Below are positions 2,972 through 34,344 of a stretch of DNA of 64,000 bases, piece by piece. The stretch is from positions 83,423-147,422 of the forward strand of contig JBAZZP010000003.1 of assembly GCA_041658745.1 (NCBI GenBank). Reading direction: 5' to 3'. The translations under genes were made by a program, and so were the position numbers. This DNA comes from Candidatus Margulisiibacteriota bacterium. Lineage in GTDB: Bacteria; Margulisbacteria; WOR-1; O2-12-FULL-45-9. Every line of letters begins with the position of its first letter. The stretch's first letter is position 1. Under the pieces are notes generated by a model, which did no database searches, was not told the origin of the DNA, and saw only the letters and a list, made by a program, of their open reading frames with translations.

Positions 2972-2980
2972 TTTTTCTCC

Positions 2981-7281: not shown

Positions 7282-7303
7282 GATTTGTTATACTTAAATT
7301 AAT

Positions 7304-7807: not shown

Positions 7808-7837
7808 AATCAACTTTCTTTGTAAATTTTCTGCAAA

Positions 7838-9203: not shown

Positions 9204-9214
9204 ATCAGTAAAGT

Positions 9215-9241
9215 ATCATGAATAAATAGCAATAATTTCAC
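9215..9241 (-). promoter_or_regulatory. ECF-sigma-like promoter box GTGAAAT-N16-TGAT, 11 nt before the beta-CASP MBL ATG
   Basis: The coding strand reads AGTGAAAT-tattgctatttattca-TGAT-actttactgat-ATG. There is no SD. Confidence 0.5.
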
Positions 9242-9315
9242 TTTTTCAATTGCAGATTAATTGAATACAGGCTAAAATAGTCTCGGATAGAAGGGGCATT
9301 CTTTTAGGAGAAATT

Positions 9316-9762
9316 ATGTCAGACATAATGGTTGTAGCTAATTTATTAATTTCTTTTCTGCTGGGGGGAGCAATTGGCTGGCTGAGAGAAATAGAAGGCA
9401 AAACTGCTGGGCTCAGAACTCACATTTTGGTCGCGGTTGGTTCCACGCTATTTACCATTCTATCCATGGAAATGATGAATATTTCCGGCAGCTCAGATCC
9501 CGGCAGATTAACCGCGGGAATAGTTACCGGAATTGGTTTTATTGGCGCTGGCTGTATTATTCAAGCTGGGGGCGGAGTAAAAGGAATAACCACGGCTGCA
9601 TCAATCTGGGTTGTGTCTGCGATCGGCGTTGCAGCCGGAATGGGTTATTATGTCGCCGCTGTTGCCACCACCGTTATTTCACTTTTCACCATTCAAGTCC
9701 TCGGCCATGCCGAACATCGGGTAATGAAAAGCAAAGAAAGGGAAGAAGCAAAAAAAGGATAA
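9316..9762 (+). CDS. MgtC/SapB family membrane protein
   Basis: 148 aa. Motif LLGGAIGWLREIEGKTAGLRTHILVAVGS. SD TAGGAG lies upstream. Confidence 0.8.
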   Translation: MSDIMVVANLLISFLLGGAIGWLREIEGKTAGLRTHILVAVGSTLFTILSMEMMNISGSSDPGRLTAGIVTGIGFIGAGCIIQAGGGVKGITTAASIWVVSAIGVAAGMGYYVAAVATTVISLFTIQVLGHAEHRVMKSKEREEAKKG

Positions 9763-9765
9763 AAT

Positions 9766-10443
9766 ATGTTTTATTATGATCCAACTTTTCTATTAATCAT
9801 CCCAGCCCTCCTCTTAGCCTTGTTTGCCCAATATAGAGTTAATTCTACTTATGCCAATTATTCCAAAGTACCCGCTTCCATTGGCATAACTGGCGAAGCG
9901 CTGGCTGAAAGAATATTGGCTAATCAAAATTTACTGATAAAAGTAGAATCCGTAGCCGGCGAGCTCTCTGATCATTATGATCCAACAGCTAAGGTTTTGC
10001 GCTTATCAAAAGGAGTCTATTCTGGCAATTCGGTAGCAGCGATGGGAATTGTTGCTCACGAAATCGGCCACGCCATGCAGGATGCAAAAGCTTATATGCC
10101 CCTAAAACTGCGTAATAATTTTGTGCCAGCGGCCAATTTTGGCACCAATTTTGCCTTTCCGCTCTTTTTTGTCGGGATCATTGCCGGCTTCCCCTTTCTG
10201 ATGGATTTGGCCATTCTGCTTTTTACTTTTGCCGTTGTTTTTTCCGTTATCACCTTGCCGGTTGAATTTAATGCTAGTAAAAGAGCTATGGCATTATTGT
10301 CCGACGGACATTATTTAACCAGCCAAGAACTCCCGATGGCCAAAAGCGTCCTTTCAGCTGCGGCTTTAACCTACGTTGCTGCCACGGCTATGGCAGTGTT
10401 AAACCTCATTCGTCTCCTTATTTTGCGCCGCTCTAGAGATTAG
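9766..10443 (+). CDS. YugP-like putative neutral zinc metallopeptidase (membrane)
   Basis: 225 aa. HEIGHAMQ (HExxH) between TM segments. The N-terminus MFYYDPTFLLIIPALLLALFAQ is typical of the Zn_peptidase_2 family. Confidence 0.75.
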   Translation: MFYYDPTFLLIIPALLLALFAQYRVNSTYANYSKVPASIGITGEALAERILANQNLLIKVESVAGELSDHYDPTAKVLRLSKGVYSGNSVAAMGIVAHEIGHAMQDAKAYMPLKLRNNFVPAANFGTNFAFPLFFVGIIAGFPFLMDLAILLFTFAVVFSVITLPVEFNASKRAMALLSDGHYLTSQELPMAKSVLSAAALTYVAATAMAVLNLIRLLILRRSRD

Positions 10444-12749: not shown

Positions 12750-14039
12750 CTAAGAAAAGCGCACATCAATCGCACGAGCATGCGCATCCAGCCCTTCAAT
12801 CTCAGCCAGCAGCCTAATATCTTTCCAAACATTCTTTAGAGCCGGTTTAGTATAGCCAATAATGCTCTGTGTTTTAACAAAATCATACACCCCAAGTGGC
12901 GATAAAAAGCGCGCAGTTCCCCCTGTTGGCAAGACATGGCTTGGTCCGGCGATATAATCGCCGACCGGGACAGGCGAATATGGTCCCAAAAATACCGCTC
13001 CCGCATTTCTAATTTTTTCCAAGAAACGCTGAGGAGACCCAATTTGCAGTTCTAAGTGCTCTGGCGCAATCTGGTTAGTTATTTCTACAGCATCTTTGAG
13101 GTTATCAACCACAAATATTTTTATTTCGGCACTTTCAATAATTTCCTTACGGGATAATTTCACGGTTTGCTTAATAATTTCCTTGCGGGTATTTTCGGCA
13201 ACCGCCTGAGAATCAGTTAATAATACGGCAAAAGAAGAAGGATCATGTTCAACCTGCGATAATAGATCAGCTGCCATAAATTCGGGCTCAGCATCTTGGT
13301 CAGCAATAATGACCACGTTTGATGGTCCAGCTAAACTGTCAATTCCCACCATCCCAAAGACTTGTTTCTTGGCGAGTGTGACATAAATATTACCTGGCCC
13401 AACAATTTTATCCACTCTTGGAATAGTTTCGGTACCAAAAGCCAGTGCCCCAATGGCCTGGGCTCCACCGACACGATAAACCTGGGAAACCCCAGCTTCG
13501 GCTGCAGCAACCAAAACATGCGGATCAACTGGCGGCGGAGTAACCACCACAATTTCTTTTACTCCGGCAACTTTGGCAGGAATGGCCCCCATTAATACAG
13601 ATGATGGATAAATGGCCCTACCGCCCGGCACATAAACTCCCACTCTGGCTAGTGGTATTAGCCGCTGTCCCAGCACAACATCGAGCGGCAAAGTTTCAAA
13701 CCATTCATCTGGTTTTTGTTTTTGATGAAAAGCAGTAATGTTTTGAATGGCCTTTGAGAGAGCATCCGTATAATCAGAATCTACTTTTAGATAAGCATCC
13801 TTAATCTCTTCTTGAGTAACTTTTATATTTTTAGCACTAAATTGGGAGGCTGCCGGTCGGCTAGCAGAAAAATCAAATTTTTGGGTATATTCAACCAGTG
13901 CCGCATCTTTGCGCTCAATAACATCCAGCAATATTTTTCTAACACTTTCTTCCTGCTGCGATACCAGAGAAAAGCTTTGCCGTGCAACGATTTTGGCTAC
14001 TTCTTCCGCTATTTTATCTTTCTGAAATAATTCGAGCAT
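12750..14039 (-). CDS. hisD: histidinol dehydrogenase
   Basis: 429 aa. Motifs GGAQAIGALAFGTE, IVGPGNIYV and APEHLEL. Confidence 0.92.
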   Translation of the reverse strand: MLELFQKDKIAEEVAKIVARQSFSLVSQQEESVRKILLDVIERKDAALVEYTQKFDFSASRPAASQFSAKNIKVTQEEIKDAYLKVDSDYTDALSKAIQNITAFHQKQKPDEWFETLPLDVVLGQRLIPLARVGVYVPGGRAIYPSSVLMGAIPAKVAGVKEIVVVTPPPVDPHVLVAAAEAGVSQVYRVGGAQAIGALAFGTETIPRVDKIVGPGNIYVTLAKKQVFGMVGIDSLAGPSNVVIIADQDAEPEFMAADLLSQVEHDPSSFAVLLTDSQAVAENTRKEIIKQTVKLSRKEIIESAEIKIFVVDNLKDAVEITNQIAPEHLELQIGSPQRFLEKIRNAGAVFLGPYSPVPVGDYIAGPSHVLPTGGTARFLSPLGVYDFVKTQSIIGYTKPALKNVWKDIRLLAEIEGLDAHARAIDVRFS

Positions 14040-14042
14040 TTT

Positions 14043-15107
14043 TTATATTCCAACCCGTGTTCCGCGCTTAATTAACGATCCGTCAGCTAAAACCAATCCT
14101 TCGCTTATATAAGACTCATCCTCAATAGTACACCCCTTGCCAACAATACAGTTTGAAAGGTGAACATGATTCCCAATCTTTGAACCATCCCAAACAATCG
14201 TCCTGGTTAGCAGGCAATGCTCTCCCACAGTAACGTTATTGCCAAGGACAACATAATCTTTAATTTCTGTCCCCTTTCCGATCCTTACTTTTTCTCCAAT
14301 TACCGATGGGCCGCTCAACCTAACACTTGCATCGGGATATGTATCTTTGGCAATCCAGGTTTTGTTATTCACCCGCGTTCCATCGATACGCACTGCTACT
14401 TCGCCGCGCAAGATTGCCTCATGCGCTTCTTGATATTTAGCCGGGTTGCCAATATCAATCCAATAAGCACTCGAAGAATAGCCATAGACAGCCTCACCGG
14501 AGGCAAGAAGTGACGGATATAGTTCTCTTTCAAAAGAAAAGGGAACACCGGCAGGAACACTAGCAAATATTTTGGGATCTACCACGTAGATGCCTGCATT
14601 GATATTATGGGTAGTTACTCTTTCCCAGCTGGGTTTTTCAATAAATTCAGTAACCCGCCCATCTTGATCGGTTAAAACCAGGCCAAAGGGAGTTGGATCT
14701 TCTACTTCGACCAACGTTAAGGTTACCCGCGCTTTTTTATCTTGGTGGAATTTTACTACTTTCGTAATATTAATATCGGTTAAAATATCGCCATTAAAAA
14801 TAATCATGGGTCCAGCATCAAAATATTTTTCAGCGTTTTTTACCGCCCCCGCCGTTCCCAGAGGGGATTCTTCAATTGAATAATGAACCTTAATTCCCCA
14901 TTTTCGACCATCATCAATTACCCTTTTTATATCTTGAGAAAGATAATGCAAATTTAGAATAACCTCATCTACCCCATGTCGCACCAGCTGCTCAATTTGA
15001 TGGATTACAAAGGGGATATTAACTAGCGGAACAATCGGCTTGGGGGTATTATGGGTCAGAGGTCGAAGCCTTGTCCCTAATCCACCAGCAATAATTACCG
15101 CCTTCAT
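14043..15107 (-). CDS. sugar-1-phosphate nucleotidyltransferase (mannose-1-P guanylyltransferase-like) with C-terminal left-handed beta-helix
   Basis: N-terminus MKAVIIAGGLGTRLRPLTHNTPKPIVPL, with hexapeptide repeats at the C-terminus. Its start overlaps the PGI/PMI gene stop. Confidence 0.8.
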   Translation of the reverse strand: MKAVIIAGGLGTRLRPLTHNTPKPIVPLVNIPFVIHQIEQLVRHGVDEVILNLHYLSQDIKRVIDDGRKWGIKVHYSIEESPLGTAGAVKNAEKYFDAGPMIIFNGDILTDINITKVVKFHQDKKARVTLTLVEVEDPTPFGLVLTDQDGRVTEFIEKPSWERVTTHNINAGIYVVDPKIFASVPAGVPFSFERELYPSLLASGEAVYGYSSSAYWIDIGNPAKYQEAHEAILRGEVAVRIDGTRVNNKTWIAKDTYPDASVRLSGPSVIGEKVRIGKGTEIKDYVVLGNNVTVGEHCLLTRTIVWDGSKIGNHVHLSNCIVGKGCTIEDESYISEGLVLADGSLIKRGTRVGI

Positions 15108-16171
15108 CTTTTCAGTTCCTTCTTAAGCCGCGTAATCGCATCAACTGGAGTAGGATCAATTTTTGAAACCAGCGGCAAATAAACACTGAGCAAATCACCA
15201 TAATAGATTAACGACAAAATTCGAGCTAATTTGCTTTGACCTTGAGAAAAGATTTCACTAAAGCCACCGAGCTGCCTCCCCAGTAGGGACTTGGTTATTT
15301 CGATGCGCTTTTTGTTTTTTTCGAGATCTTTCTCGTCCCGCAAAAATATTGCCATAAATTTATGACTATCACGTTTTAATTCATATAGGTTAACTATTTC
15401 GTTATGGTTCATTTCAGGCAAAACATAGAGAATGGCACAAGACTTACTATTCTCATTAAACTGACATTTTAGGCGCAAGCCGGCCGCCGCAGAGCTACCA
15501 GCAACTGTAAAAATTAGAGGAATTTTACCGACTAATTGCTGGGCTAGGCGCTTGGCTGGGTTATTGCGCATAGGGCGATTAATCCCTATTTCTCCGCGAA
15601 CTTTTTCAAGGACCAAGGTAGCCTCGTTAATGGCCTTATCCAGATTGCTAACTAACCCACTTTTCTGTAGCGCCTTAAGCAGGGCGATTAAAATGTAGGG
15701 AAGCGCCGCTCTGGGCTGAAAACCTGCTGGCAACATGAACGTTGGATATTTTCGCGCAGTTGCTATTTCTTTTAATTTCCCCCCGGCTGTAATACAAACA
15801 ATCCGAGCCCCTAGAGCCTCAGCCTCTTTTAGACTGGCAAGTGTTTCTTCGGTATCTCCAGAATATGAGATTGAAAAAAAGAGGGTCTCGTCGCCAACCA
15901 TCGCCGGAATACGGTAATTTCGGCAAACCTGAATGGGGACTTTTAAATCGGCAATCAATAAATCAGCAACGATATCACCGGCAATCGCTGATCCGCCCAT
16001 TCCGGAAATCACAATATTCTTTATTTTTTTTATCTTAGGAAATTTGGTGTTTTCATATAATGCTTCAGCTTTTTGCAAATGTTCGGGCATGGCAAGAGCA
16101 ATTCCCAACATGCCACTCTTATCAATTTTATTTATTTCATCTTGATTATCAATTACATCAATTTTATTCAT
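15104..16171 (-). CDS. bifunctional phosphoglucose/phosphomannose isomerase (SIS domains)
   Basis: Motifs ISGMGGSAIAGD, SYSGDTEET and C-terminal PTPVDAI. I prefer the ATG at 16171 (MNKIDVID), which overlaps the last codons of ctpA. Confidence 0.75.
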   Translation of the reverse strand: MNKIDVIDNQDEINKIDKSGMLGIALAMPEHLQKAEALYENTKFPKIKKIKNIVISGMGGSAIAGDIVADLLIADLKVPIQVCRNYRIPAMVGDETLFFSISYSGDTEETLASLKEAEALGARIVCITAGGKLKEIATARKYPTFMLPAGFQPRAALPYILIALLKALQKSGLVSNLDKAINEATLVLEKVRGEIGINRPMRNNPAKRLAQQLVGKIPLIFTVAGSSAAAGLRLKCQFNENSKSCAILYVLPEMNHNEIVNLYELKRDSHKFMAIFLRDEKDLEKNKKRIEITKSLLGRQLGGFSEIFSQGQSKLARILSLIYYGDLLSVYLPLVSKIDPTPVDAITRLKKELKR

Positions 16172-22804: not shown

Positions 22805-23269
22805 TTAAAAAGGTATTTCGTCAATTTCTTTACTCTCGTCCCCTTCAATGGCCATTACGGGCCCTTTCTTCCCTTCCTCTCCCTCATGGGCCTTCACGGG
22901 CCCTTTGTCCCCCTCTTCTCTTTTTCCCAACATTTGGATATTATCCGCGATAACTTCGACCATGCTTCTTTTTTCGCCATCTCGTCCCACAAAATTACTG
23001 ACCTGCAGCCGGCCTTCTACCGCCACCGGTCGGCCTTTTTTAAGGTATTCGCCCACAATTTCGGCGGTTCTTCTCCATGCAACAATATTTATAAAATCCA
23101 CATCCTGGTTGGCAGATGAAGAATCATGCCCCGTAGCTTCTTGGGATTCTTCCTTGCGTTTAAACCGGTTTACCGCAACCGTAAAACGACAGACAGGAAT
23201 CCCCGAAGTGGTATAGCGAAGCTCCGGATCCCTCGTTAAATTCCCAATTATAAAAACTTTATTATACAT
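22805..23269 (-). CDS. ssb: single-stranded DNA-binding protein (paralogue 2, with internal 13-aa tandem duplication)
   Basis: OB fold MYNKVFIIGNLTRDPELRYT..CRFTVAVNR..FINIVAWR, with the acidic tip DEIPF. Confidence 0.85.
   Translation of the reverse strand: MYNKVFIIGNLTRDPELRYTTSGIPVCRFTVAVNRFKRKEESQEATGHDSSSANQDVDFINIVAWRRTAEIVGEYLKKGRPVAVEGRLQVSNFVGRDGEKRSMVEVIADNIQMLGKREEGDKGPVKAHEGEEGKKGPVMAIEGDESKEIDEIPF
22841..22918. repeat. 2 x 39-nt tandem duplication inside ssb paralogue 2
   Basis: It encodes EEGDKGPVKAHEG / EEGKKGPVMAIEG. An exact 14-mer, ccctcatgggcctt (22881-22894), recurs intergenically at 23298-23311. Confidence 0.7.
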
Positions 23270-23314
23270 GCCATATACCCTTAATCGCCTTTATGGGCCC
23301 TCATGGGCCTTTTA

Positions 23315-23737
23315 CTAAAAAGGCAAATCGTTATCTAAGTCAGCGTCATCCACCACATCTTCGGCGGCAGCAACACTGGCAAGCGTCGGTTTAGCAGCGT
23401 GTTGGTGATCAGCTCCCAGCAAAAAAACATCTTTCGCTACGACTTCAGTTACCCATTTCCGTTTCCCGCCTTGGTCATCAAAAGAGCGGACCTGAATTCG
23501 TCCTTCAACTAAGACCATTTGGCCGGATTTTAATTTTGCACTGCCTTCGGCAACATTGCGCCAGGCAATAATATCAATTAAATCAGAACCAGATTGGATC
23601 GGCGTTGGTTGTCCTAAAGAAGCCCGCCTCTCAACCAGCAATTTAAATTTGGTCATGGCCAAACCGTCCATCGTAGCACGCGCCTCGGCATCTGTAGCCA
23701 GTTTACCTGACAAAATAATACGGTTTAAACTAGCCAA
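23315..23737 (-). CDS. ssb: single-stranded DNA-binding protein (paralogue 1)
   Basis: OB fold NRIILSGKLATDAE..DIIAWRNVAE..VEGRIQVRSF, with the acidic tip DNDLPF. Confidence 0.85.
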   Translation of the reverse strand: MASLNRIILSGKLATDAEARATMDGLAMTKFKLLVERRASLGQPTPIQSGSDLIDIIAWRNVAEGSAKLKSGQMVLVEGRIQVRSFDDQGGKRKWVTEVVAKDVFLLGADHQHAAKPTLASVAAAEDVVDDADLDNDLPF

Positions 23738-24173: not shown

Positions 24174-25259
24174 CTACACATTAAACTTAACAATGATCAC
24201 ATCGCCATCTTGAATGGTATAACTCTTCCCTTCAGTGCGCAGTAAGCCTTTTTCGCGAGCCTTAGCCCAAGTAACGCAGTCAATTAAATCTTGCCAATTG
24301 ATTACTTCATCCGCAATAAAGCCTCTTTCCATATCAGAATGGATTTTGCCGGCAGCTTGGGGAGCCTTCGTCCCTTTTTGTACAGTCCAAGCCCGAGATT
24401 CTTTTTCGCCCGCCGTAAAAAAAGTGATTAAATCCAACAATTCATAGCCGGTACGGATTAATTGGTGCAAAGCCGATTCTTTTACCCCCATCTCCAACAA
24501 ATAAGCCTTGGCATCTTCATCAGACAATTCAGCAATTTCAGATTCAAGTTTGGATGAAATGCTAATCACTTTGGCATTTTCAGCTTTAGCAATTTTTTCA
24601 ACAATGGCTACTTGCTCTTTACTGCCTGACTCATCAACATTGGCTACATATAATACCGGTTTTTGGGTTAGGAGTGAAAACCCGACCAATAAAGCCCTTT
24701 CGTCTTCGGTTAAATTTGACTCACGAGCCGGCTTTCCAGCCTCTAAAACACTTTTAAGCCGATTTAAGATTTCGGTTTCTTTAGCGGTTTTCTTATCCCC
24801 GCTGCGAGCCTTGGCAGCAACGGCCGATAAACGTTTTTCTACTTGCGCTAAATCAGCCAATATCAGTTCTAGATTAATAATTTCGATATCTCTTGCGGGA
24901 TCAACATTGCCTGCCACATGAATAATTTCATCATTTTCAAAGCAACGGACAACGTGGGCAATCGCGTCTACCTCGCGGATATGGGCCAAAAATTTATTGC
25001 CTAACCCCTCCCCCTCATGCGCCCCTTTGACTAACCCCGCGATATCGTAGAACTCTATATATGTAGGGACCGTCTTCTTGGAGGCAAAGAGCTGGGACAG
25101 TTTAATCAGCCGTTCATCGGGGACTTCTACTACCCCAACATTGGGATCGATCGTGCAAAAGGGATAATTGGACGCCTCGGCCTTGGCGCGGGAGAGCGCA
25201 TTAAATAAGGTGGATTTCCCAACGTTCGGCAAACCAACAATTCCTAAAGATAAAGCCAT
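24174..25259 (-). CDS. ychF: ribosome-binding ATPase YchF
   Basis: Motifs [17 protein letters not shown] and FCTIDPNVG, plus a C-terminal TGS-like region ending in [11 protein letters not shown]. Confidence 0.92.
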
Positions 25260-25292
25260 ATTTTTAGTATAACACAGACCAGTGTCTTTGAA

Positions 25293-26597
25293 CTATGTCT
25301 GGCGAATCCCAGCACCCCAACGTGCAAGTGTCGCCGTCAGGCAGACATCTAGATTAGTATTACGGATCTCTCCCAAGCCTCTTCCTTGTAGACGGTTGGC
25401 AACACAACCCCCTTGGCATATTTCTATGACATCACAGGGTTGGCAAATGGATGACGGGTATTGCAAATGGTCTTCGATGACCCGGTTTTTAAAAATCTGC
25501 CCAGTTTTCGGGTCCCCCAAAATTAAGCCATCGGTTTTTTCTCCCACTAAGGCTAGACAAAAAACAAACTTTTCTTCTGGCAGGAGAAGGGTGTAAGACT
25601 GCGGAGAATCAAGCATAGGACAAGGTCGGCGCGAAGTAAGATAGGCATTATCCTCAAGTCCTAATTGATAGCGCCAGATCCCTTTGGAATAATAATTTGG
25701 TCCAATGGTCCCCATACTAAGCAGGATCTGCAACTTTTCCTTTGGCCAATTTTTCCGAGCTTCAATCACGGACAACAAAAAGCGATCCATGGCGTCTTCC
25801 GTGAGAGGGGAAACGCCCCCTTTAGCGTTTCCAAGCGGCCGCGTTAAACGCAAAACCACTGTTTCAACTCCCAACTCAACAGCCTCCCGCGCAACTTCTT
25901 GAATTCCTTCTAAATAATCCAAATAAACCTGACTAAATATTCCCACCGAAAATGGTCGCGGATTATGGCTGCGCGAAAACTCAACCATTTCCCCAATATT
26001 TGAAGAGACAGCAGCATGGCTGTTTCTCCCATAAGCTATTTGGTGAAGGGCAGCCGGCAGATGACTAATGCGTAAATGGCGAACCGAAGATTGAGCCAAA
26101 GCCTGCAAATTTTGCTGGGTCAGTCTTCTTTCCCCATTGGTAATGGCATAGGGATCCCCTGCCAAAGTTTTAAGACGCAGCACCTGTTCCAACAGGCGAT
26201 CATTTACATTTAATTCTTTTGGATAGGCGGTAGTTAGAAAGCCTTCAGCTTGCGCGGCACGGATTCTTGCTGAGATTAAATCTTCATCAATAACTGGGCT
26301 CTCTGGTCCTTCGGGTGTCCAAAAACAAAACTCACAGCGGCGATTGCAGGGAGTATTAAGTAGTAGATCGGCCATTGGCTTTACTGGACGCTGCAACAAC
26401 CGCTCTCCATAGCGCTTAATATTCGGCATATTTGTCGCCGCTCGTGCCCGTTGACTGGCCGAGAGGCCAAGGTAAGGAGCAATCAAAGAATACTCCGCCG
26501 GCCCCAAGGTTTTTCCAGCCACAACAATGTTTCCCGATTTACGTGGTAGTAAATGAACAACCATATTATTTTTTCTCCCAACCATTAAACTCGTCAT
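25293..26597 (-). CDS. radical SAM enzyme with C-terminal SPASM-like Cys cluster and ~70-aa N-terminal extension
   Basis: CNRRCEFC (Cx3Cx2C) lies at about residue 84. The C-terminus has CPMLD.., FCLAL.. and CQPCDVIEICQGGCVANR (CxxCx5Cx3C). Confidence 0.75.
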   Translation of the reverse strand: MTSLMVGRKNNMVVHLLPRKSGNIVVAGKTLGPAEYSLIAPYLGLSASQRARAATNMPNIKRYGERLLQRPVKPMADLLLNTPCNRRCEFCFWTPEGPESPVIDEDLISARIRAAQAEGFLTTAYPKELNVNDRLLEQVLRLKTLAGDPYAITNGERRLTQQNLQALAQSSVRHLRISHLPAALHQIAYGRNSHAAVSSNIGEMVEFSRSHNPRPFSVGIFSQVYLDYLEGIQEVAREAVELGVETVVLRLTRPLGNAKGGVSPLTEDAMDRFLLSVIEARKNWPKEKLQILLSMGTIGPNYYSKGIWRYQLGLEDNAYLTSRRPCPMLDSPQSYTLLLPEEKFVFCLALVGEKTDGLILGDPKTGQIFKNRVIEDHLQYPSSICQPCDVIEICQGGCVANRLQGRGLGEIRNTNLDVCLTATLARWGAGIRQT

Positions 26598-26604
26598 CTA
26601 GTCT

Positions 26605-26631
26605 ATCTGAGTAAATAAAAAATAATTTCAC
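26605..26631 (-). promoter_or_regulatory. ECF-sigma-like promoter box GTGAAAT-N16-AGAT, 7 nt before the radical-SAM ATG
   Basis: The coding strand reads AGTGAAAT-tattttttatttactc-AGAT-agactag-ATG. There is no SD. Confidence 0.55.
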
Positions 26632-26661
26632 TAAATAAATTAGGCAAAAGAAAAAATATTC

Positions 26662-26687
26662 TGAAATTATCCTAACTTCCTCTCGAG
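26662..26687 (+). promoter_or_regulatory. near-match to the same promoter box (TGAAAT-N16-CGAG), 8 nt before the MBL ATG
   Basis: Reads cTGAAAT-tatcctaacttcctct-CGAG-attaagtt-ATG. There is no SD. Confidence 0.35.
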
Positions 26688-26695
26688 ATTAAGTT

Positions 26696-27646
26696 ATGAT
26701 TTCGCGCATATCAAAACATGCAGCAAAACCTACACATCAAAAAAATGCTGCTCCAATGCGACCAGGCTTCGCTAAGCTCGAGAAGGTCGGCACCTTTCAA
26801 GAGTGGTTCGAGGTTTACAGGCTCACGCCGGATACATATGCAATTTATGAACCGTATCAATTCCAGGAAGCGATCTGCTATCTTGCTCTGGGCACATCGA
26901 AGGCACTGCTCATAGACACCGGTAACGGCATTGGCAACATTCGAGATGTTGCCTCCACATTAACAGGTTTGCCCATCTCAGTTGTCCTAACTCACGAGCA
27001 CGCGGATCACTACGGCGGCGCGCATTTATTTGAGCACGTTGCCGTTTACAATTTTCAGGCAGCGCTTAAGGAGCTGCGACAAGGGGTTCCGAACGCATCC
27101 GCATGCTGCTCCATCACTGGGAATAACTTATGGGGACCGCTTCCTAATGGGGTTGATCCCGCGACTTGGTCTGTGCTGCCGGTCAATCCCGATTTGCTGC
27201 TCGAAGAGGGCTCAATAGTTGATTTGGGTGGCCGTCAGCTTGAAGTGATCCACACGCCAGGGCACTCGGCTTCCGAAATCTGCCTGCTGGATAACAGCCG
27301 CCGTCTATTGTTCTCGGGAGATCATTTTTACCCCGGTCCGTTGTATTTACAATCGGCAACGGCCGACATCCTCAGCATCTTCGTGGAATCGAACAATAAA
27401 TTAGTACAACGTGTTAATGAGTACGACCATGTGCTTGGCGGTCATAACGAGCCGTGGATCGACGCCGCCGTAATTCCCCGTGTTAGCCAAGCGATGGCGA
27501 TTGTTCTCTGTGGTGGTGGCGCTTTTTCTGAAGATCAGGGAATCAGACGTTATTTCTTCGACGGGTTCGATATCCTGCTTCGCGCTGCGAGCATCAAGAG
27601 TTACATGGTAAAACATCTGCCTGTTAGTGAAAAAAAGATGGATTGA
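26696..27646 (+). CDS. MBL-fold metallo-hydrolase
   Basis: Motifs THEHADHYGG (HxHxDH), HTPGHS and FSGDH. Spot counts suggest it is GC-richer than most of the window. Confidence 0.8.
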   Translation: MISRISKHAAKPTHQKNAAPMRPGFAKLEKVGTFQEWFEVYRLTPDTYAIYEPYQFQEAICYLALGTSKALLIDTGNGIGNIRDVASTLTGLPISVVLTHEHADHYGGAHLFEHVAVYNFQAALKELRQGVPNASACCSITGNNLWGPLPNGVDPATWSVLPVNPDLLLEEGSIVDLGGRQLEVIHTPGHSASEICLLDNSRRLLFSGDHFYPGPLYLQSATADILSIFVESNNKLVQRVNEYDHVLGGHNEPWIDAAVIPRVSQAMAIVLCGGGAFSEDQGIRRYFFDGFDILLRAASIKSYMVKHLPVSEKKMD

Positions 27647-27692
27647 TCTAGCTTAATCCTGGGAAAGAAATAAATCTGGAATTTTAAATCGC

Positions 27693-27719
27693 GTGAAATT
27701 TATTAGAAATATAGAAGAA
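27693..27719 (+). promoter_or_regulatory. near-match promoter box GTGAAAT-N16-AGAA upstream of the FGE-like gene
   Basis: The 13-mer gtgaaatttatta is identical to 28806-28818. It is followed by a 44-nt leader with a TAGGAG SD. Confidence 0.3.
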
Positions 27720-27763
27720 AACAAAGTGAAAGATACAACGCAGAATACTTAGGAGATTAGAAC

Positions 27764-28804
27764 ATGGTTAAAACCTCTGTTGCAGGAAATGTTGGCGGGG
27801 ACAGTTTGGTTAGAGCCCTGCTATGTTCTCAAGCTTCTATAAGAGGGGACCAAAAAAGAAGCCGAAGTTGTGGCATAAGGATATTTTCACAATACTTAGG
27901 GAGAAACTCCGCAAGACAAGAGGCATGGGTGAAAAACACCCCCCTTTCACCGGAAGTGGTTTTTGCTCGTGCTAGTTTAGATAGTGCTTGGCTAAAACAA
28001 GCTGGGCAATGGCTGGAAACCTCAACTGACCCAAAACAACGGGCGGCCATGTTAAAAAGACTTGGGGCTGAAAAGCTTGAACCAGAAAATCTTTACCCCC
28101 TTCCCGAAATTGAGTTACCCATGGTGCCCCACATTCCAACAGGGCCATTCACGATGGGCAGTCAGCAATTTGATGACGCTAAACCTTTGAGAGAAATAAT
28201 CCTTGATCCTTTTAGTATAAGTATTTTCCCAGTAACCAGAGCCCAATATTTGATAGGAATGCAGCAAGCAGGTTTAATCACACCGGAATATTGGAAGCAA
28301 ACAGACGGAGAATTGATTTGCCCTTCCCATCCGGTTACCGGTGTAACTTGGGAACAGGCCAACGCGTTTGCAGAGTGGCTTGGCCGAAGATTACCTACCG
28401 AAGCTGAATGGGAATTCTCCGCTAGAGGTTATGATGAAAAACTCTATCCATGGGGAAACATATTTGATCCTTCACGGGCGGCCTTTCACCAACGGGGAAC
28501 CAGCCCCGTTGATGCCTACCCAACCGGTGTATCTTGGAATGGGATTTTTGGACTAGCTGGTAATATTTGTGAGTGGTGCGCTGATTGGTATGCTTCATAT
28601 GACCCGTCCGCATTACACAACCCTCGCGGCCCAGAAGAAGGAAGCATGCGAGTTTTACGTGGTGGGTCACATTTCTATGATGAGCCCGAATTATTGCGTA
28701 GTGATCGTCGCAACAAGCATTATCCAAGCATCGTCGGCAATAGTTATGGTTTTCGCGTAGCGGAAGGGGGCATTGTTCCCCCAAATGGCTTAGTTAAAAA
28801 ATAG
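27764..28804 (+). CDS. FGE-sulfatase domain protein (SUMF1/EgtB/PvdO family) with ~115-aa N-terminal extension
   Basis: Motifs GPFTMGS, HPVTGVTWEQANAFAEWLGRRLPTEAEWEFSARG, GNICEWCADWY and RVLRGGSHF. Confidence 0.8.
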   Translation: MVKTSVAGNVGGDSLVRALLCSQASIRGDQKRSRSCGIRIFSQYLGRNSARQEAWVKNTPLSPEVVFARASLDSAWLKQAGQWLETSTDPKQRAAMLKRLGAEKLEPENLYPLPEIELPMVPHIPTGPFTMGSQQFDDAKPLREIILDPFSISIFPVTRAQYLIGMQQAGLITPEYWKQTDGELICPSHPVTGVTWEQANAFAEWLGRRLPTEAEWEFSARGYDEKLYPWGNIFDPSRAAFHQRGTSPVDAYPTGVSWNGIFGLAGNICEWCADWYASYDPSALHNPRGPEEGSMRVLRGGSHFYDEPELLRSDRRNKHYPSIVGNSYGFRVAEGGIVPPNGLVKK

Positions 28805-28805
28805 A

Positions 28806-28832
28806 GTGAAATTTATTAAGAGAGGGGCTGAT
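28806..28832 (+). promoter_or_regulatory. ECF-sigma-like promoter box GTGAAAT-N16-TGAT, 8 nt before the M20 peptidase ATG
   Basis: Reads AGTGAAAT-ttattaagagaggggc-TGAT-ataaaggc-ATG. Confidence 0.55.
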
Positions 28833-28840
28833 ATAAAGGC

Positions 28841-30463
28841 ATGAACAAAGTAACGACTCAAGGCACTGCCGCTCAAATCAGGCAGCTATCAGCATTAACT
28901 GCCCGGCTGGTAAAAACGGGGAGCATTAGTCCCTCTCAAGGAGAAAATAGGGTCGCTAAACTAATTGTTAGAACCATGCAACGCGGAGGATTTTCTATCG
29001 CTGATCCGCTAACAAGCGATGTCCTTCTATCCGCCAGCACCGGCTTAATTCCACTGCCCGACGGAAGGGCAAATGCCTTTGCCTTCCTGCCCGCCTTAGA
29101 AAGAACCGATAAAACATTATTACTATTTGGCCACATGGATACTGTTGGGATAGATGATTTTGGCCAGCTAAAAGGTGTGGCAAACGATCCCGTAAAATTA
29201 AGAAAGGCTCTCATAGAAGAAGGAAGCGAAGCTGAGGCCATTAAGGACTTACTAACTGGGAACTGGATGTGCGGACGTGGGTCATTGGATATGAAGAGCG
29301 GTCTCGCCATTGAAATGACAACCTTAATTAATCTTCGCAGTAATCCTTCCAATGGGAATATTCTTTTTATGGGAATGCCCGACGAAGAAAACGATTCGGC
29401 CGGTATGCTGGGCGCTGTCCCATTTTTAAAACATTTTGCCGAATTACACCAGCTCAACCTAATGGGAGCCATTAATGCCGACTATACTACCGAAAGATTT
29501 CCAGGAGATAGCAACCGCTATTTGTATTTGGGAACAGTTGGTAAACTTTTACCAACTTTTTTAGTCATTGGCAGTACAACCCACGTGGGAGAGATTTTTA
29601 ACGGGATCAACCCTTCATTAATCCTTGCCCAGCTAGCTGCTCAAATGGAAACTAATCCGGCCTTTTGCGATACAATGGAAGGAGAAACGACCCTTCCCCC
29701 CACTGCATTAAAGTTTTCCGACCTAAAAGCAGGTTATAATGTGCAAACTCCGCTCTCTGCCTGGGCATATTTTAATTTATTCACCCATTCAATGACTCCG
29801 GAAAACGCCATGCAGCATATTTTGTCTATCGCTCGGGAAGCAGCACATAGGTCCCAACAAATATTGCGGGCAAGAACCAGGGATTTTAATGTGCGGACTG
29901 GCAGCAACCATCCCGATACCCAAATTAACATTTCTGTTTTGCCTTTTGACGAATTAGCTACTGGGCTTACAATTGATTCTTCGGCTGCTGCAATAGCTAC
30001 CGATCCACGGGATAAAAGCCGACTAATTGTTGAAGATTTATGGAGAAGGTCGGGAAGATCGCTTGGTAGACATGAGGCGGTGATTATCCCATTTTTGTCT
30101 CCACCTTACTATCCACATGGACATGTTTCGAAGGAAGAATCGGCCGCTTCCTCTTTTATTTCAGCAGCAACAGCTAGTGCAAAACGGGCCGGATTAGCCG
30201 TCAGGAAATTTTATCCGTATATTTCGGATGCCAGCTTTCTGCGGGCGCCCATGACCGGAGCAGACATGACCAGTCTATTGCCTTTATGGGAAAAGGGCTA
30301 TCGTCTTCCCATCGAAGACATTCGTGCATTAAATTTACCCGTAATTAATTTAGGACCTTGGGGAAAGGGGGCGCATCAGAGAATCGAAAGAATTGAAACC
30401 AGTTATTCTTTTGGAAGGCTTCCACAAATTATGGAAGATGTTATCCGTAATACCTTTAGATAA
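28841..30463 (+). CDS. M20-family metallopeptidase/amidohydrolase, RocB-like (long form)
   Basis: 540 aa. Motifs LLLFGHMDTVGIDDFG, GRGSLDMKSG and MPDEENDSAGM. The size and N-terminal block resemble the arginine-utilisation protein RocB. Confidence 0.7.
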   Translation: MNKVTTQGTAAQIRQLSALTARLVKTGSISPSQGENRVAKLIVRTMQRGGFSIADPLTSDVLLSASTGLIPLPDGRANAFAFLPALERTDKTLLLFGHMDTVGIDDFGQLKGVANDPVKLRKALIEEGSEAEAIKDLLTGNWMCGRGSLDMKSGLAIEMTTLINLRSNPSNGNILFMGMPDEENDSAGMLGAVPFLKHFAELHQLNLMGAINADYTTERFPGDSNRYLYLGTVGKLLPTFLVIGSTTHVGEIFNGINPSLILAQLAAQMETNPAFCDTMEGETTLPPTALKFSDLKAGYNVQTPLSAWAYFNLFTHSMTPENAMQHILSIAREAAHRSQQILRARTRDFNVRTGSNHPDTQINISVLPFDELATGLTIDSSAAAIATDPRDKSRLIVEDLWRRSGRSLGRHEAVIIPFLSPPYYPHGHVSKEESAASSFISAATASAKRAGLAVRKFYPYISDASFLRAPMTGADMTSLLPLWEKGYRLPIEDIRALNLPVINLGPWGKGAHQRIERIETSYSFGRLPQIMEDVIRNTFR

Positions 30464-30484
30464 AAAAACAAGGAGGAAAAGAAA

Positions 30485-31171
30485 ATGGCAGTATTAAGTA
30501 TTGGTTCAATCCACGTGCAAAAATTATACAGAGGAATGAGGACTCCTGAAAGCACAATGAAAATTGGGGGGGAACGCTTGGCCCACATCCTAGGGGTTAG
30601 GCCGGGAACAGCTTCTTTCGGGAGAATTGCTTTCGGCAATCAAGAATTAGATCTCAGGGAAATAGTAAACTTGGCTGCTCCTGCCGACATAGCCGTAAAT
30701 GGCAGGGAAGAGATTGACGCGGCAAAAGCACAAGCAATTTTAGCTGCTAGAGTAACTGGCAACTGGGAAACGGCCAATGGATTGCTTGGAACTAATTTGC
30801 ACGCAAGCCGCACGATAAGAAGATCGCTAGCTTATACTCTTTTGGAAGAAGGAGTAGCAGCCTTTAACCGTTTAAGAGAATCCTTAAGTGAAGCAACTGT
30901 TAATCTGCGCGGCGTCGAAATGCCCGAGATTGACCTTTCTGGCGCTACCCTTTCTGGTGCAGAATTAGCGTTTGCCAATTTGTCTAGGACACGTTTCTCG
31001 AGTAAGACCAGATTAGACGGTGCAGATTTAACCGGCGCAAACCTAGCTGGGGCAGATCTATCAAATGCAGATTTGTCAACGGCGCTTGTTGCAGAGGCGA
31101 CCTATTCTAGCGCTACTCGATTTCCAGCAAATTTCGATCCTGCAAATCTTGGAATGATAAAAATAGGATAA
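30485..31171 (+). CDS. pentapeptide-repeat protein (repeats only in the C-terminal ~80 aa)
   Basis: LSGATLSGAELAFANLSRTRFSSKTRLDGADLTGANLAGADLSNADLS. AAGGAGG SD lies upstream. Confidence 0.8.
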   Translation: MAVLSIGSIHVQKLYRGMRTPESTMKIGGERLAHILGVRPGTASFGRIAFGNQELDLREIVNLAAPADIAVNGREEIDAAKAQAILAARVTGNWETANGLLGTNLHASRTIRRSLAYTLLEEGVAAFNRLRESLSEATVNLRGVEMPEIDLSGATLSGAELAFANLSRTRFSSKTRLDGADLTGANLAGADLSNADLSTALVAEATYSSATRFPANFDPANLGMIKIG

Positions 31172-31187
31172 TAAAGGAGGAAATAAT

Positions 31188-32447
31188 ATGACAACTTTAA
31201 TCGGGACAGCGCTTAGGAATTATTCTCATCTCAAAATGGACACAATTAGAGCCTCAATTCAAGAATCAGTTGGCTCATTAAGGTCAAGATTGAGAGAAAG
31301 ACATCGAGGGACATTGGTTCAACAGGCAACAGAGGTTGCCAGAAAGGGGGCAGCTCTCAGCATTTATTGCCCAATCAACGTAGCACTTGCCCACACCGCC
31401 GCACCAAGATTGGAAGCGGTCGCTAAACCGGACTCACAGTCAAGGATTTTGTCCAGAAGGCCAATGACAATTGTAACTGTTAACTCCGGTTTTTGTGCCG
31501 GAAAATCTACCGATCCCAACCTGCAAACCCCCAACATGGTTGTAAGCAGATTGCGGGAAATGCTTTTAACTTTAGGCGACCAATGGAAATCCATTGGTAA
31601 AAATTTAAAATGGGTGCATGCCCCTACCGTATTTTACCCAAGCAAACCGATTGAATTAGCAAGGGTGGATGATCGCAATCCCAATTCGTTTAAGTATATA
31701 CGAGAAGCTGTTCTAAATTACTACTTTTCTTATTCAACAACTATTAATGGGGTGCTAGAGAGAGGATTTTCTCCATTACTCGTCGGAGGAGATCATTCTT
31801 TGGCTTTTGCGAGCGTCTCTACCGTAAGCAACCACTATTTTAGAAAAACTGGAAAAACCGCCGGATTGGTTTGGGTTGATGCCCATGGAGATATAAACAC
31901 TAGAGCTACTTCGCCGTCAGGAAATTTCCATGGCGGACCAGTTGCTGCCCTGCTTGGGATATCCAACACAGTTATGGATCTTTTCATGGAAAAACCATTA
32001 AACCCCAGAAACATCGTATATATTGCCATTAGAGATTTGGATCCAGGAGAAATTGCAACTATTGCCCGTCTTGGCATAAAAGTTTTTAGCGCCAAGGACA
32101 TTGAAAAAGATGGATTGGAATCGGTAATGCAACAAGCCAGAGCCATTGCCGGCCAAGGAACCTCTGGTATTTGTGTTTCATTTGATATTGATGGAGTTGA
32201 AGGAACCCATGTCCCCGGAACAGGAACTCCGGTTAGTGTTGGAGAAAATATGGACAAGAGGGGCCTTACTCCTCAAGAAGCCAAAGATATGGCAACCATT
32301 TTCGGGAGCTGGAGGAACCTTATTTCTTTTGACATGGTAGAAGTAAATCCCGAAATTGATCAAAAACCGGGGTTTCCAACAGTCCAACTCGCCAGTGAAA
32401 TTCTTACAAACTTTATTGTCAGCCGTAACGACACTTCCATAACATAG
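31188..32447 (+). CDS. arginase/agmatinase/formiminoglutamase-family ureohydrolase with ~90-aa N-terminal extension
   Basis: Motifs VGGDHSLA, VWVDAHGDINT and SFDIDGVEGTHVPGTGTP, so the metal ligands are intact. AAGGAGG SD lies upstream. Confidence 0.8.
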   Translation: MTTLIGTALRNYSHLKMDTIRASIQESVGSLRSRLRERHRGTLVQQATEVARKGAALSIYCPINVALAHTAAPRLEAVAKPDSQSRILSRRPMTIVTVNSGFCAGKSTDPNLQTPNMVVSRLREMLLTLGDQWKSIGKNLKWVHAPTVFYPSKPIELARVDDRNPNSFKYIREAVLNYYFSYSTTINGVLERGFSPLLVGGDHSLAFASVSTVSNHYFRKTGKTAGLVWVDAHGDINTRATSPSGNFHGGPVAALLGISNTVMDLFMEKPLNPRNIVYIAIRDLDPGEIATIARLGIKVFSAKDIEKDGLESVMQQARAIAGQGTSGICVSFDIDGVEGTHVPGTGTPVSVGENMDKRGLTPQEAKDMATIFGSWRNLISFDMVEVNPEIDQKPGFPTVQLASEILTNFIVSRNDTSIT

Positions 32448-32484
32448 CAACAATTTGGCGAATAGTCCAAATAAGGGGGAAAAC

Positions 32485-34344
32485 ATGGCAATCGATAGAG
32501 AAATGGGCCTGCAGAGATTAAGATTTATTCTGCCCGGAAGGCATACACAGCCGATGCTGGCAACCCATCCTGCTCCAAGGACGGAAGGAGTTCCAACCAT
32601 TGCCGGCTTAGGCAGTCCTTTGCGGATTGCTACCCGTCCCCCTCTCTTTAAACCTTTATTGCAGAGAGAGTTTTTTGCAGCTTTAGCCACAGCTTTCCCT
32701 GCCTACCAATTAACCCCTGAAGTAGAAAAACAGCTAGGAGTTACTTATCCAAAACTAGCCGATCATGGCGATTATGCTATCCCCGTTTTTGCTCTGTCCA
32801 AAGCGATAAGACAAGCTCCTGCAACTATCGCCGAAAAAATTGCCTCCGAAATGCGCGCCAATCCGGACATTAACCGTTATTTCGATATTAATGTGATTAA
32901 TGGTTATATTAATTTCCGCTTTAGTGATGCTTTTTTGATGGCCTCTGCCACTTCCCTAGATTCAACTTTTGGGAATAACGATACTTTGGCGGGACAAACC
33001 ATTCAGGTTGAATGGGTCTCGGCTAATCCAACCGGACCGTTACACATTGGCCATGCTCGCTGGGCGGTGATGGGAGATTTACTTTGCAAAATGCTCGAAG
33101 CCTGTGGCGCAACTGTGCAACGCGAATTTTATGTTAATGACGCCGGCGCCCAGATTGAGCGCTTTAGGAAATCCGTCCAAGCCGCCAAAGAAGGAAGCGC
33201 CATCCCGGAAGATGGCTATCATGGACAATATATCTATGAAATTGCCAAACAAGGGGGAGACCCTGTTTTGCTTATGATGGAATATCAACGTCTTTCACTG
33301 GAAGCCATCGGTGTCCATTTTGATCGTTGGTTTTCGGAAAAAACCCTCTACATTCCCGATGCAGAAGGCAGAACGATGGTAGATAAGGGCTTAGCCATTT
33401 TAGAAGCTGCCCACTTAACCTACCGCGCCGCCGAAGGAGAACAGGTTGACGAAGAAATAAACGCTCCCGTAAACAGAAAAGGACAAGCCCAAACCGGAGA
33501 AGCCTTATGGTTTCGTTCTACCCAATTTGGTGACACTAAGGACAGAGTACTCATCAAGGCAAATGGCGCTGCAACCTACTTTTTAGGAGACATTGCTTAT
33601 CACTTAGATAAAGTTGGGCGTGGCTTTGATTTCTTGTTCAATATTTTAGGGGCCGACCACGGCGGTTATGTCGCCCGTCTTTCAGCTGCGATCCAGGCTT
33701 TATCTGACGGAAAACAAGGCCACCACATAATCATTGGCCAATTAGTTAAATTACTAAAGGAAGACCCCGATTCACACCAACTAGTAGAGGCCCGCATGTC
33801 AAAACGCACCGGCGAAATGGTCTCTTTGGGAGATATAACCGAAGCTATTGGGGCAGATGCGGTACGCGTTTTTATGGGGAGCGCCGGATTTGATACCGCC
33901 GTAAATATCAATTTGGATGTTGCTACCAAAAAGTCTTCTGATAATCCAGTATTTTACATCCAGTACGCCCACGCCCGCATTGCCCAGTTATTAAAAAAAG
34001 CACAGGAACAAGGCATCACTCCAGCCACAACCATTCCTGCCGATTATAGACTAAATACCGAAGAGAGAGCGCTATTAGCAGCTATCTACAAAATACCGGA
34101 TGAAATATTAGAGGCTGCTGATGCTCAGGCCACCCAGAGGATCCTTCAATTTACGATGGATCTGGCAACCCGCTTCCATGCTTTTTATCATGCGCACCAT
34201 ATTGTTAACGAACATGATTTGCCTACCAGCCAAGCAAGATTGGCTCTCTGCCAGGCAACTGCGCAAGTTCTTAAAAACGTTTTTGCTCTTATGGGGATTT
34301 CTGCACCAGAAGAAATGGCAGCCAGAGAAGAAGCACCAGTTTAA
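32485..34344 (+). CDS. argS: arginyl-tRNA synthetase with ~55-aa N-terminal extension
   Basis: Motifs SANPTGPLHIGHAR (HIGH) and MSKRTG (KMSK-like), plus the DALR anticodon-binding region. The ATG at 32485 has a strong AAGGGGGA SD. The track start at 32455 is also possible. Confidence 0.88.
   Translation: MAIDREMGLQRLRFILPGRHTQPMLATHPAPRTEGVPTIAGLGSPLRIATRPPLFKPLLQREFFAALATAFPAYQLTPEVEKQLGVTYPKLADHGDYAIPVFALSKAIRQAPATIAEKIASEMRANPDINRYFDINVINGYINFRFSDAFLMASATSLDSTFGNNDTLAGQTIQVEWVSANPTGPLHIGHARWAVMGDLLCKMLEACGATVQREFYVNDAGAQIERFRKSVQAAKEGSAIPEDGYHGQYIYEIAKQGGDPVLLMMEYQRLSLEAIGVHFDRWFSEKTLYIPDAEGRTMVDKGLAILEAAHLTYRAAEGEQVDEEINAPVNRKGQAQTGEALWFRSTQFGDTKDRVLIKANGAATYFLGDIAYHLDKVGRGFDFLFNILGADHGGYVARLSAAIQALSDGKQGHHIIIGQLVKLLKEDPDSHQLVEARMSKRTGEMVSLGDITEAIGADAVRVFMGSAGFDTAVNINLDVATKKSSDNPVFYIQYAHARIAQLLKKAQEQGITPATTIPADYRLNTEERALLAAIYKIPDEILEAADAQATQRILQFTMDLATRFHAFYHAHHIVNEHDLPTSQARLALCQATAQVLKNVFALMGISAPEEMAAREEAPV

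Follow-up and report, generated by a model that had tools for sequence, protein, structure and literature searches.

We examined a block of adjacent genes in a 64,000-nucleotide (nt) stretch of DNA from Candidatus Margulisiibacteriota bacterium (assembly GCA_041658745.1, contig JBAZZP010000003.1, positions 83,423 to 147,422; hereafter the window, whose numbering is used throughout). The block is surrounded by housekeeping genes (ychF, rpsF-ssb-rpsR-rplI and mutL). Its right-hand part, on the plus strand, comprises genes for a RocB-family M20 hydrolase (28841..30463), a small pentapeptide-repeat protein (PRP; 30485..31171), an extended arginase (31188..32447) and an arginyl-tRNA synthetase (ArgRS), whose gene, argS (32485..34344, start ATG at 32485), is the last of the proposed operon. 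Its left-hand part comprises genes for a radical SAM (rSAM)/SPASM protein, a metallo-β-lactamase (MBL)-fold hydrolase and a protein with a formylglycine-generating enzyme (FGE)-sulfatase domain. The first-pass annotation of this DNA, which had grouped the six genes preceding argS as one accessory island, located their open reading frames (ORFs) correctly, and its family assignments were borne out by profile searches (the rSAM protein by motif, with scores under the cut-offs). The gaps of 21, 16 and 37 nt that it gave for M20-PRP, PRP-arginase and arginase-argS were also confirmed, each with a strong Shine-Dalgarno sequence (GGAGG or GGGGG). The gene order is identical in a Logan contig, L005.

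The block is best explained as a mosaic, made up of at least two parts that are unrelated to each other, and not as one pathway. The RocB, PRP, arginase and argS genes probably form a Roc-type arginine/citrulline-to-ornithine operon that is co-transcribed with argS, with the three flanking genes unrelated to it, a reading in which we place moderate confidence.

An arginase and a RocB homologue beside argS

By sequence comparison, the M20 protein is a homologue of RocB along its full length. It matches proteins named RocB ('arginine utilization protein RocB' in several sources) with 33-38% identity over 96-98% of the query, the E-values reaching ~1e-97 among Bacillota-type homologues. Proteins of the RocB type have ~550 residues and combine an M20 catalytic domain with a large insert. 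The Peptidase_M20 profile matches the window protein at 3e-8 (34 bits, cut-off 24.6), and the metal and catalytic motifs HMDTVG, DMKSG and DEEN can be read in its translation; no homologue of solved structure was detectable by sequence. The protein encoded by the first gene of the arginine operon is thereby a predicted citrullinase (N-carbamoyl-L-ornithine hydrolase). The RocB of Bacillus subtilis is an Mn-dependent citrullinase that converts citrulline to ornithine (PMC10404663). A RocB homologue with 44% identity was also seen in an archaeal context (L012/L013, 8001-9569, with PolD DP1/DP2 and Cdc6), where its gene overlaps the end of the DP2 gene and has no arginine genes nearby.

The arginase (Arginase profile, 1e-47) keeps six of six Mn ligands when aligned with the Bacillus caldovelox enzyme (1cev), the motifs GGDHS, DAHGDIN and SFDIDG being in register. 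The same alignment places the residues of L-arginine binding (Asn/Ser/Asn/His, Asp/Glu, Thr and Glu) in NTRATSPSGNFHG, RDLDPGE, GTGTPV and EVNP. In human numbering we take the residues that bind free L-arginine to be Asn130, Ser137, Asn139, His141, Asp183, Glu186, Thr246 and Glu277. Because both the metal ligands and the arginine-binding residues are kept, the enzyme most probably acts on free arginine rather than on a peptide, and it is predicted to convert L-arginine to ornithine and urea. It is 35-45% identical to free-arginine arginases, and its nearest relatives outside its own clade are ordinary arginases of ~300 residues. The clade itself is small and opens with the motif NSGFCAG, and nearly every member found adjoins argS. 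The ArgRS exceeds the TIGR00456 cut-off (329.3 bits, cut-off 261.65), matches DALR_1 (2.8e-31), contains the HIGH motif (as PLHIGH) and carries a basic N-terminal extension of ~60 residues.

Related loci place an arginine hydrolase gene beside argS in several arrangements. On a JGI metagenome contig (L177), the 3' end of an ornithine aminotransferase (OAT) gene is followed by genes for RocB (49% identical), an extended arginase (51%) and ArgRS, the stop and start codons abutting. Locus L011 encodes a protein resembling dimethylarginine dimethylaminohydrolase (DDAH) and arginine dihydrolase, a B12-binding rSAM protein, a protein of no family, OAT (TIGR01885, 513 bits), RocB (46%), a second DDAH-like protein, ArgRS (54%, gap of 1 nt) and an AlaDh_PNT-like protein. 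A DDAH-like gene here occupies the arginase slot, and the locus therefore represents a non-orthologous replacement of the hydrolase by a non-homologous arginine hydrolase; with RocB and OAT, the DDAH-like protein would complete a coherent pathway that leads from arginine, by way of citrulline and ornithine, to glutamate semialdehyde. In L006/L007, L095 and L008, ArgRS is followed by an arginase of 510-642 residues with an N-terminal domain of ~190 residues. The ArgRS of L006 (7627-9966) is a 779-residue protein with an N-terminal GNAT fusion (Acetyltransf_3, 1.8e-14), encoded directly upstream of the 642-residue arginase. Locus L094 encodes a 796-residue protein in which arginase is joined to tetratricopeptide repeats (TPR); it has no argS nearby and lies 0.7 kb from a gene for pyruvoyl-dependent arginine decarboxylase.

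The window ArgRS is 50-57% identical to those of L006, L008, L011 and L095, all of which adjoin an arginase or DDAH-like gene, and the partial ArgRS of L177 adjoins an arginase as well. Leaving aside the partial L177 protein and the pair L006/L095 (79%), the ArgRS sequences encoded at these loci share 50-64% identity with one another and therefore represent several separate lineages, at least five. Linkage to argS is seen in two gene orders and, in one case, with a non-orthologous enzyme in place of the hydrolase; adjacency holds in five of the six lineages of the arginase clade, plus the case of the DDAH-like substitute, and the intergenic gaps at the linked loci are 0-37 nt, with Shine-Dalgarno sequences. 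In 80 control argS loci of other phyla, the fetched flanks, up to 10 kb long, contain no gene for arginase or RocB; these are distant phyla among the matches listed, with ArgRS identities of 35-42%, and not relatives. Likewise, argS is absent from all 78 loci of ordinary arginases that served as a control. A single-protein ArgRS scan of GTDB genomes returned no match. In a relative whose pyrH-frr-uppS-cdsA genes are 60-65% identical (L009), RocB (53%) lies elsewhere, with no arginase, argS, FGE or MBL gene, and the six-gene block is therefore not ancestral. The conserved neighbourhood is RocB-arginase-ArgRS and not the six-gene unit for which the first-pass annotation had suggested looking in related genomes.

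Several further features of these loci were noted. The B12-binding rSAM gene inside the arginine cluster of L011 (4086-5645; 519 residues, under all curated cut-offs) adjoins a gene for a 224-residue protein without a family match. The long arginases (P0009, P0010, L094 at 7847-10237 and L095 at ~1800-3176) share the conserved N-terminal domain of ~190 residues, which belongs to no assigned family, and their C-terminal tails include leucine-rich repeats (LRR) in P0010 and TPR in the 796-residue L094 protein. A 66-residue ORF of L094 (10228-10428) overlaps the last 10 nt of that arginase gene, and its product begins with the N-terminal motif of the arginase (ISFNFGDRILRY; profile E-value 1.6e-5).

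The PRP is specific to the window version of the operon: it is missing from the L177, L011, L006 and L008 loci. It consists of an N-terminal part of 135 residues and ~90 residues of repeats (Pentapeptide, 6e-17, residues ~137-224 only). A role in immunity, which had been proposed for it, finds no support in scores that lie far under the cut-offs of the Qnr model (29.7 bits, cut-off 240) and the MfpA model (24 bits, cut-off 360), nor in its absence from the orthologous L177 operon. We also considered whether a copy of the ~190-residue N-terminal domain of other lineages' arginases had split off to become the PRP, and rejected this as unsupported: hhalign aligned 14 columns with a probability of 7%, BLASTP found nothing between the two, and Pfam detected no pentapeptide repeats in the arginase domains.

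The N-terminal extensions noted in the first-pass annotation are open in frame and coding-like, with codon log-likelihood scores of +0.06 to +0.18, against -0.2 to -0.8 in other frames. Extensions of ~60-100 residues are found on the arginases of the window and L177 and on the ArgRS proteins of the window, L011 and L177, the GNAT fusion standing instead in the L006 ArgRS; extensions of 80-100 residues also occur in L011, on OAT and on both of the DDAH-like proteins. The housekeeping proteins of the window have none. That of the arginase spans 88-92 residues, of which residues 45-92 are conserved in the L177 orthologue; that of ArgRS occurs in four lineages, with a weak alignment; and that of the rSAM protein, a domain of ~60 residues, is conserved in seven of seven homologues. 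In composition the extensions are basic, with many Arg, Ser, Gly and Pro residues; they have no Pfam match and no detectable mutual similarity. A common N-terminal tag on the island proteins, seen by eye as F-G-G-R-I-L-R-H, was rejected for the window after a negative profile search, the arginase N-terminus profile having matched only arginases and the one small L094 ORF. A leader RNA or T-box as the source of the 'extensions' was rejected as well: at gathering thresholds Rfam found no RNA element anywhere in the window, and in 25000-33200 there was no hit even at E<=1. All-versus-all phmmer of 125-residue N-terminal segments gave a single cross-family pair, in which the extension of the L011 OAT (6475-7989; residues 6-104) resembles the N-terminus of an L094 protein (14004-15182; E-value 1e-7) of 392 residues that has no Pfam match and whose gene lies near that of the L094 arginase. 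This resemblance is a hint that the N-terminal module may be mobile.

The flanking genes and the promoter-like box

The rSAM/SPASM gene (25293..26597, minus strand) is present as annotated; its start is more probably Met12 (26564; 423 residues) than 26597, as judged from the homologue alignment and the NCBI call. The CX3CX2C cysteines of its CNRRCEFC motif (C84, C88 and C91) are invariant in seven homologues, as are those with C-terminal SPASM spacing (C326, C347, C385, C388, C394 and C398); a seventh, C420, is present in six of the seven homologues and missing only from the truncated P0006. The protein remains under the curated cut-offs of Pfam Radical_SAM (14.9 bits, cut-off 29.5) and TIGR04085 (23.6 bits, cut-off 27). 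It belongs to a rare uncharacterised subfamily, all named members of which are Margulisbacteria: seven homologues were found among 5.8 billion proteins, and an exhaustive profile search of 1.84 billion representatives gave five matches at E<=1e-30 and 33 at E<=1e-10, the next relatives being generic uncharacterised rSAM/SPASM proteins.

In two other lineages of Margulisbacteria (L001-L004; L174 and L175) the rSAM gene lies 3-8 nt after a saccharopine-dehydrogenase (Sacchrp_dh)-like gene, and in L001-L004 (8781-14143) the neighbours of this pair are lysS and an AlaDh_PNT-like gene. In this group, genes for enzymes of basic amino acids seem to lie together with those of the cognate aminoacyl-tRNA synthetases (aaRS). 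An orthologue of the L001-L004 AlaDh_PNT-like gene, at 41% identity, is found in L011, where it lies downstream of argS. In L176 the rSAM gene is in a different context, between other genes; in L178, whose rSAM protein is 74% identical, adjacency to ychF is kept and the divergent neighbour is an unrelated ORF, not MBL. On this comparative evidence the rSAM gene is not tied functionally to the rest of the block by synteny. More speculatively, the family, usually found with a Sacchrp_dh-like gene near lysS, may act on a small molecule derived from a basic amino acid. An AlphaFold2 (AF2) model of the protein (pLDDT 60.7) has SuiB and CteB as its best full-length Foldseek matches, with TM scores of 0.47-0.49; its N-terminal unit is modelled, at low confidence (pLDDT 52-66), as β-β-α-α-α. 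The PqqD-like fold of RiPP (ribosomally synthesized and post-translationally modified peptide) recognition elements (RREs), which had been suggested as something to look for in the extensions, gave no signal in this N-terminal domain against Pfam or PDB sequences. The lack of precursor-like small ORFs reported earlier extends to the homologous loci, none being conserved beside the rSAM gene in the window, L001, L174, L176 or L178.

The MBL-fold gene (26696..27646, plus strand) encodes an intact HxHxDH motif (THEHADH) and scores 69 bits against Lactamase_B (6e-19; cut-off 22.7), reaching no NCBIfam subfamily cut-off. Its GC content is 0.505, and its GC content at third codon positions (GC3), 0.525, lies ~3.5 standard deviations above that of the other window genes (0.401 +/- 0.035). 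Its codon score is two standard deviations low, as is that of the FGE-like gene. Judging from these outlier values, the MBL gene was probably acquired horizontally, and they suggest that this was recent. To this extent the term 'accessory island' fits MBL, by GC3, and perhaps the FGE-like gene, by codon score; it does not fit RocB, PRP and arginase, which are ordinary in GC3 and codon score compared with the window genes.

The FGE-like gene (27764..28804, plus strand; Pfam 1e-47) encodes a 119-residue N-terminal extension, with the domain (residues 123-333) in the C-terminal two thirds only. Where human FGE (1y1e) has MCHRSYC, the window protein has FYDEPEL and is without the catalytic Cys pair (C336, C341). 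It matches the SenA and EgtB models only over their C-terminal ~145 positions, at 85-87 bits against cut-offs of 360-420. Since the Cys pair and the DinB domain are both missing, the protein is neither FGE nor EgtB. No FGE-like or MBL homologue was present in any related locus fetched.

The exact 13-mer GTGAAATTTATTA occurs on the plus strand at 27693..27705, 58 nt upstream of the FGE-like gene, and again at 28806..28818, 22 nt upstream of the RocB start, with GATATA at fixed spacing. The divergent region between the rSAM and MBL genes (26598..26695) has a promoter-like box on each strand: GTGAAATTATT for rSAM (26631, minus), one base shorter than the 13-mer, and a weaker copy, CTGAAATTATCC, for MBL (26662, plus). 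The 13-mer belongs to a bipartite motif, TGAAAT-N17-(C)GATA, of which it forms the upstream half and which is found eight times in the window against 2.1 +/- 1.5 in shuffled sequence, six of the eight lying within 160 nt upstream of an ORF start; sites include 27694(+), 28807(+), 26630(-), 60033(-), 20705(-) and 9240(-). It recurs elsewhere (L006:7593; L009:4251/5214/7207/11216; L011:2716/5667; L094:7775/11574/13967/18017; L001:8637; L174:2332; L176:1113(-)), also upstream of operons in L178, often 33-37 nt from the start codon. Because the motif precedes many unrelated operons in relatives, these genomes most probably use it as a general type of promoter, and it would not be the mark of a dedicated regulon. 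The shared box of the first-pass annotation is real, exact before the FGE-like and M20 genes and in near-copies before rSAM and MBL, and the motif is widespread in these genomes. The motif resembles promoters of the extracytoplasmic function (ECF) type, for example that of SigW in B. subtilis, TGAAAC-N16-CGTA. It is predicted to mark separate transcription starts for rSAM, FGE and RocB, and its spacing of 33-37 nt would possibly give leaderless transcripts. Scans for sigma-70 promoters and intrinsic terminators performed no better than chance. Outside the block, we note two tandem ssb-like genes (154 and 140 residues; 22805-23737) between rpsF and rpsR-rplI.

Operon, complex or chance neighbours

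From established family memberships, from the conservation of catalytic residues and from a gene pair or triplet that recurs in other lineages, we infer the following arrangement. The first part of the block (28841-34344, plus strand) would be a Roc-type arginine utilisation operon ending in housekeeping argS, its four genes transcribed together across the 21-, 16- and 37-nt gaps. The arginase would turn free L-arginine into ornithine and urea and the RocB homologue citrulline into ornithine and carbamate, while ArgRS, presumably the product of the only ArgRS gene, would charge tRNA-Arg out of the same arginine pool. One control would then cover both uses of arginine, its incorporation during translation and its conversion to ornithine (as a source of glutamate/proline or polyamines), with the operon serving either catabolism or ornithine supply. 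The second part, rSAM/SPASM, MBL and FGE-like, would have its own promoter-like box before each gene and be a set of neighbours in this genome only.

Several observations weigh against this arrangement. RocB activity has been demonstrated only for a protein ~35% identical to that of the window. The arginase scores 170.2 bits on TIGR01229 (rocF), under the cut-off of 227.6, because its N-terminal third is divergent, as befits the NSGFCAG clade, and it carries an extension and an insertion. There is no ornithine-consuming enzyme (OAT or ornithine decarboxylase) in the 64-kb window, and the PRP sits inside the operon without explanation. No terminator was found in the 36-nt gap between FGE and RocB, making read-through possible, and the same box precedes rSAM, FGE and RocB, so that all units might be co-regulated, though the motif is widespread. 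Finally, Margulisbacteria names attach only to the rSAM-bearing loci, L009 being tied to the window by its 60-65% identical housekeeping genes.

We consider it very unlikely that all six genes, with argS, belong to one undescribed pathway that tailors a peptide, a cofactor or a guanidino metabolite, in which the rSAM/SPASM protein would be the key maturase and MBL, FGE-like, M20 and arginase would carry out tailoring steps. Their physical adjacency, the similar boxes before rSAM, MBL (the weak copy), FGE and M20, and the low-confidence β-β-α-α-α unit of a model whose best matches, SuiB and CteB, are RRE-containing maturases would all fit such a pathway; but rSAM, MBL and FGE-like genes never accompany RocB or arginase in any related locus, the partner of rSAM elsewhere is the Sacchrp_dh-like gene, and the box is a general motif of these genomes. 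The peptide- or PQQ-like (pyrroloquinoline quinone-like) tailoring proposed in the first-pass annotation finds no support either: there is no precursor ORF, and no PqqD/RRE sequence signal in the N-terminal domain; the FGE-like protein lacks catalytic residues, and the arginase keeps the α-carboxylate and α-amino contacts for free arginine. The single six-gene pathway is not supported, as rSAM homologues have other neighbours and MBL and FGE-like homologues are absent from the related loci fetched, while arginine catabolism, another of the earlier proposals, is upheld for M20-PRP-arginase-argS by RocB homology, arginase residues and synteny and does not extend to rSAM, MBL and the FGE-like gene. 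That the juxtaposition has no functional meaning, argS being an independent housekeeping gene beside accessory genes in a variable region, seems improbable to us, if somewhat less so. The block does lie among ychF, rpsF-ssb-rpsR-rplI and mutL, RocB is found elsewhere in L009, and the extended arginase of L094 has no argS nearby; against chance stand the adjacency in five of six arginase-clade lineages and in the DDAH-like case, the controls (0/80 and 0/78) and the gaps of 0-37 nt with Shine-Dalgarno sequences.

A Roc-type operon with argS leaves room for a further, speculative step, in which ArgRS is functionally, perhaps physically, coupled to the arginine hydrolases through N-terminal extensions or interaction domains, forming an arginine 'metabolon' or binding tRNA or RNA. 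The coupling would then be a physical or regulatory complex that brings arginine hydrolases, OAT and ArgRS into one assembly and partitions arginine between charging and breakdown, with the basic extensions, the ~190-residue domain and the LRR/TPR tails as docking or tRNA/RNA-binding modules. We think this unlikely, though the least so of the alternatives. Extensions of ~60-100 residues on arginase, ArgRS, OAT and DDAH-like proteins, which score as coding, are partly conserved and are missing from the housekeeping proteins of the window, are consistent with it, as are the interaction repeats on other lineages' arginases (LRR in P0010, TPR in L094) and an adjacency that persists where the gene order differs and where another hydrolase takes the place of arginase. 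However, the extensions resemble neither one another nor any Pfam family, the motif shared by eye was not confirmed by profile search, and operon linkage alone accounts for the adjacency.

If the Roc-type operon is correct, a supposed orphan biosynthetic cluster is removed and four genes of Margulisbacteria are assigned to ordinary arginine/citrulline use. The part worth following is the tight linkage, seen repeatedly, between argS and arginine hydrolase genes, and with it the N-terminal extensions: an aaRS co-expressed, and possibly complexed, with an enzyme that destroys its substrate would amount to an unusual allocation control in an uncultured phylum, and the coupling, if true, to a so far undescribed partitioning of an amino acid between translation and catabolism.

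Comparison with known systems

The window rSAM protein shares CX3CX2C and a Cys-rich SPASM-like C-terminus with anSME, PqqE, SuiB, CteB and AhbD/NirJ, and the structural match is generic; it differs in reaching no curated cut-off and in having its own conserved N-terminal domain. Unlike the named rSAM/SPASM maturases, it belongs to a tiny clade whose usual neighbour is a Sacchrp_dh-like gene. The FGE-like protein has the FGE-sulfatase (C-type-lectin-like) domain in common with FGE, EgtB and SenA but has neither the Cys pair characteristic of FGE nor the DinB-type iron-binding domain of EgtB and SenA. With Qnr, MfpA and McbG the PRP shares pentapeptide repeats; it has only ~90 residues of them, whereas the Qnr/MfpA type has ~200 continuous residues, its scores are far under the cut-offs, and no toxin or topoisomerase context surrounds it.

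The arginase resembles OspR, the peptide arginase of the landornamide pathway, in its fold and binuclear metal site. The window protein keeps the α-carboxylate and α-amino contacts, a comparison made to 1cev and not to OspR, and, in contrast to OspR-type RiPP pathways, no precursor or other RiPP genes are linked to it in the window.

The closest parallel in enzyme content is the Roc system of B. subtilis (rocABC/rocDEF, with RocF, RocB and RocD), which likewise joins an arginase to a RocB-type M20 hydrolase feeding ornithine; the orthologous L177 and L011 operons include OAT as well. The window locus differs in that no RocR/SigL control, permeases or RocA were seen there, and in having argS in the operon, N-terminal extensions on arginase and ArgRS, an inserted PRP and a RocB of ~35% identity. 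For argS, the parallel is Lactococcus lactis, in which the arcABDC genes of the arginine deiminase pathway come directly after argS (PMC5300872); in its argR-argS-arcABD1C1C2TD2 cluster, as in the window, argS directly adjoins arginine-degrading genes (PMC5300872). The L. lactis route is the ATP-yielding one of arginine deiminase, ornithine carbamoyltransferase and carbamate kinase with an antiporter, whereas the window group would use arginase (or a DDAH-like enzyme) with citrullinase; and, compared with the L. lactis cluster, linkage of the window type recurs in several deep lineages and in two gene orders.

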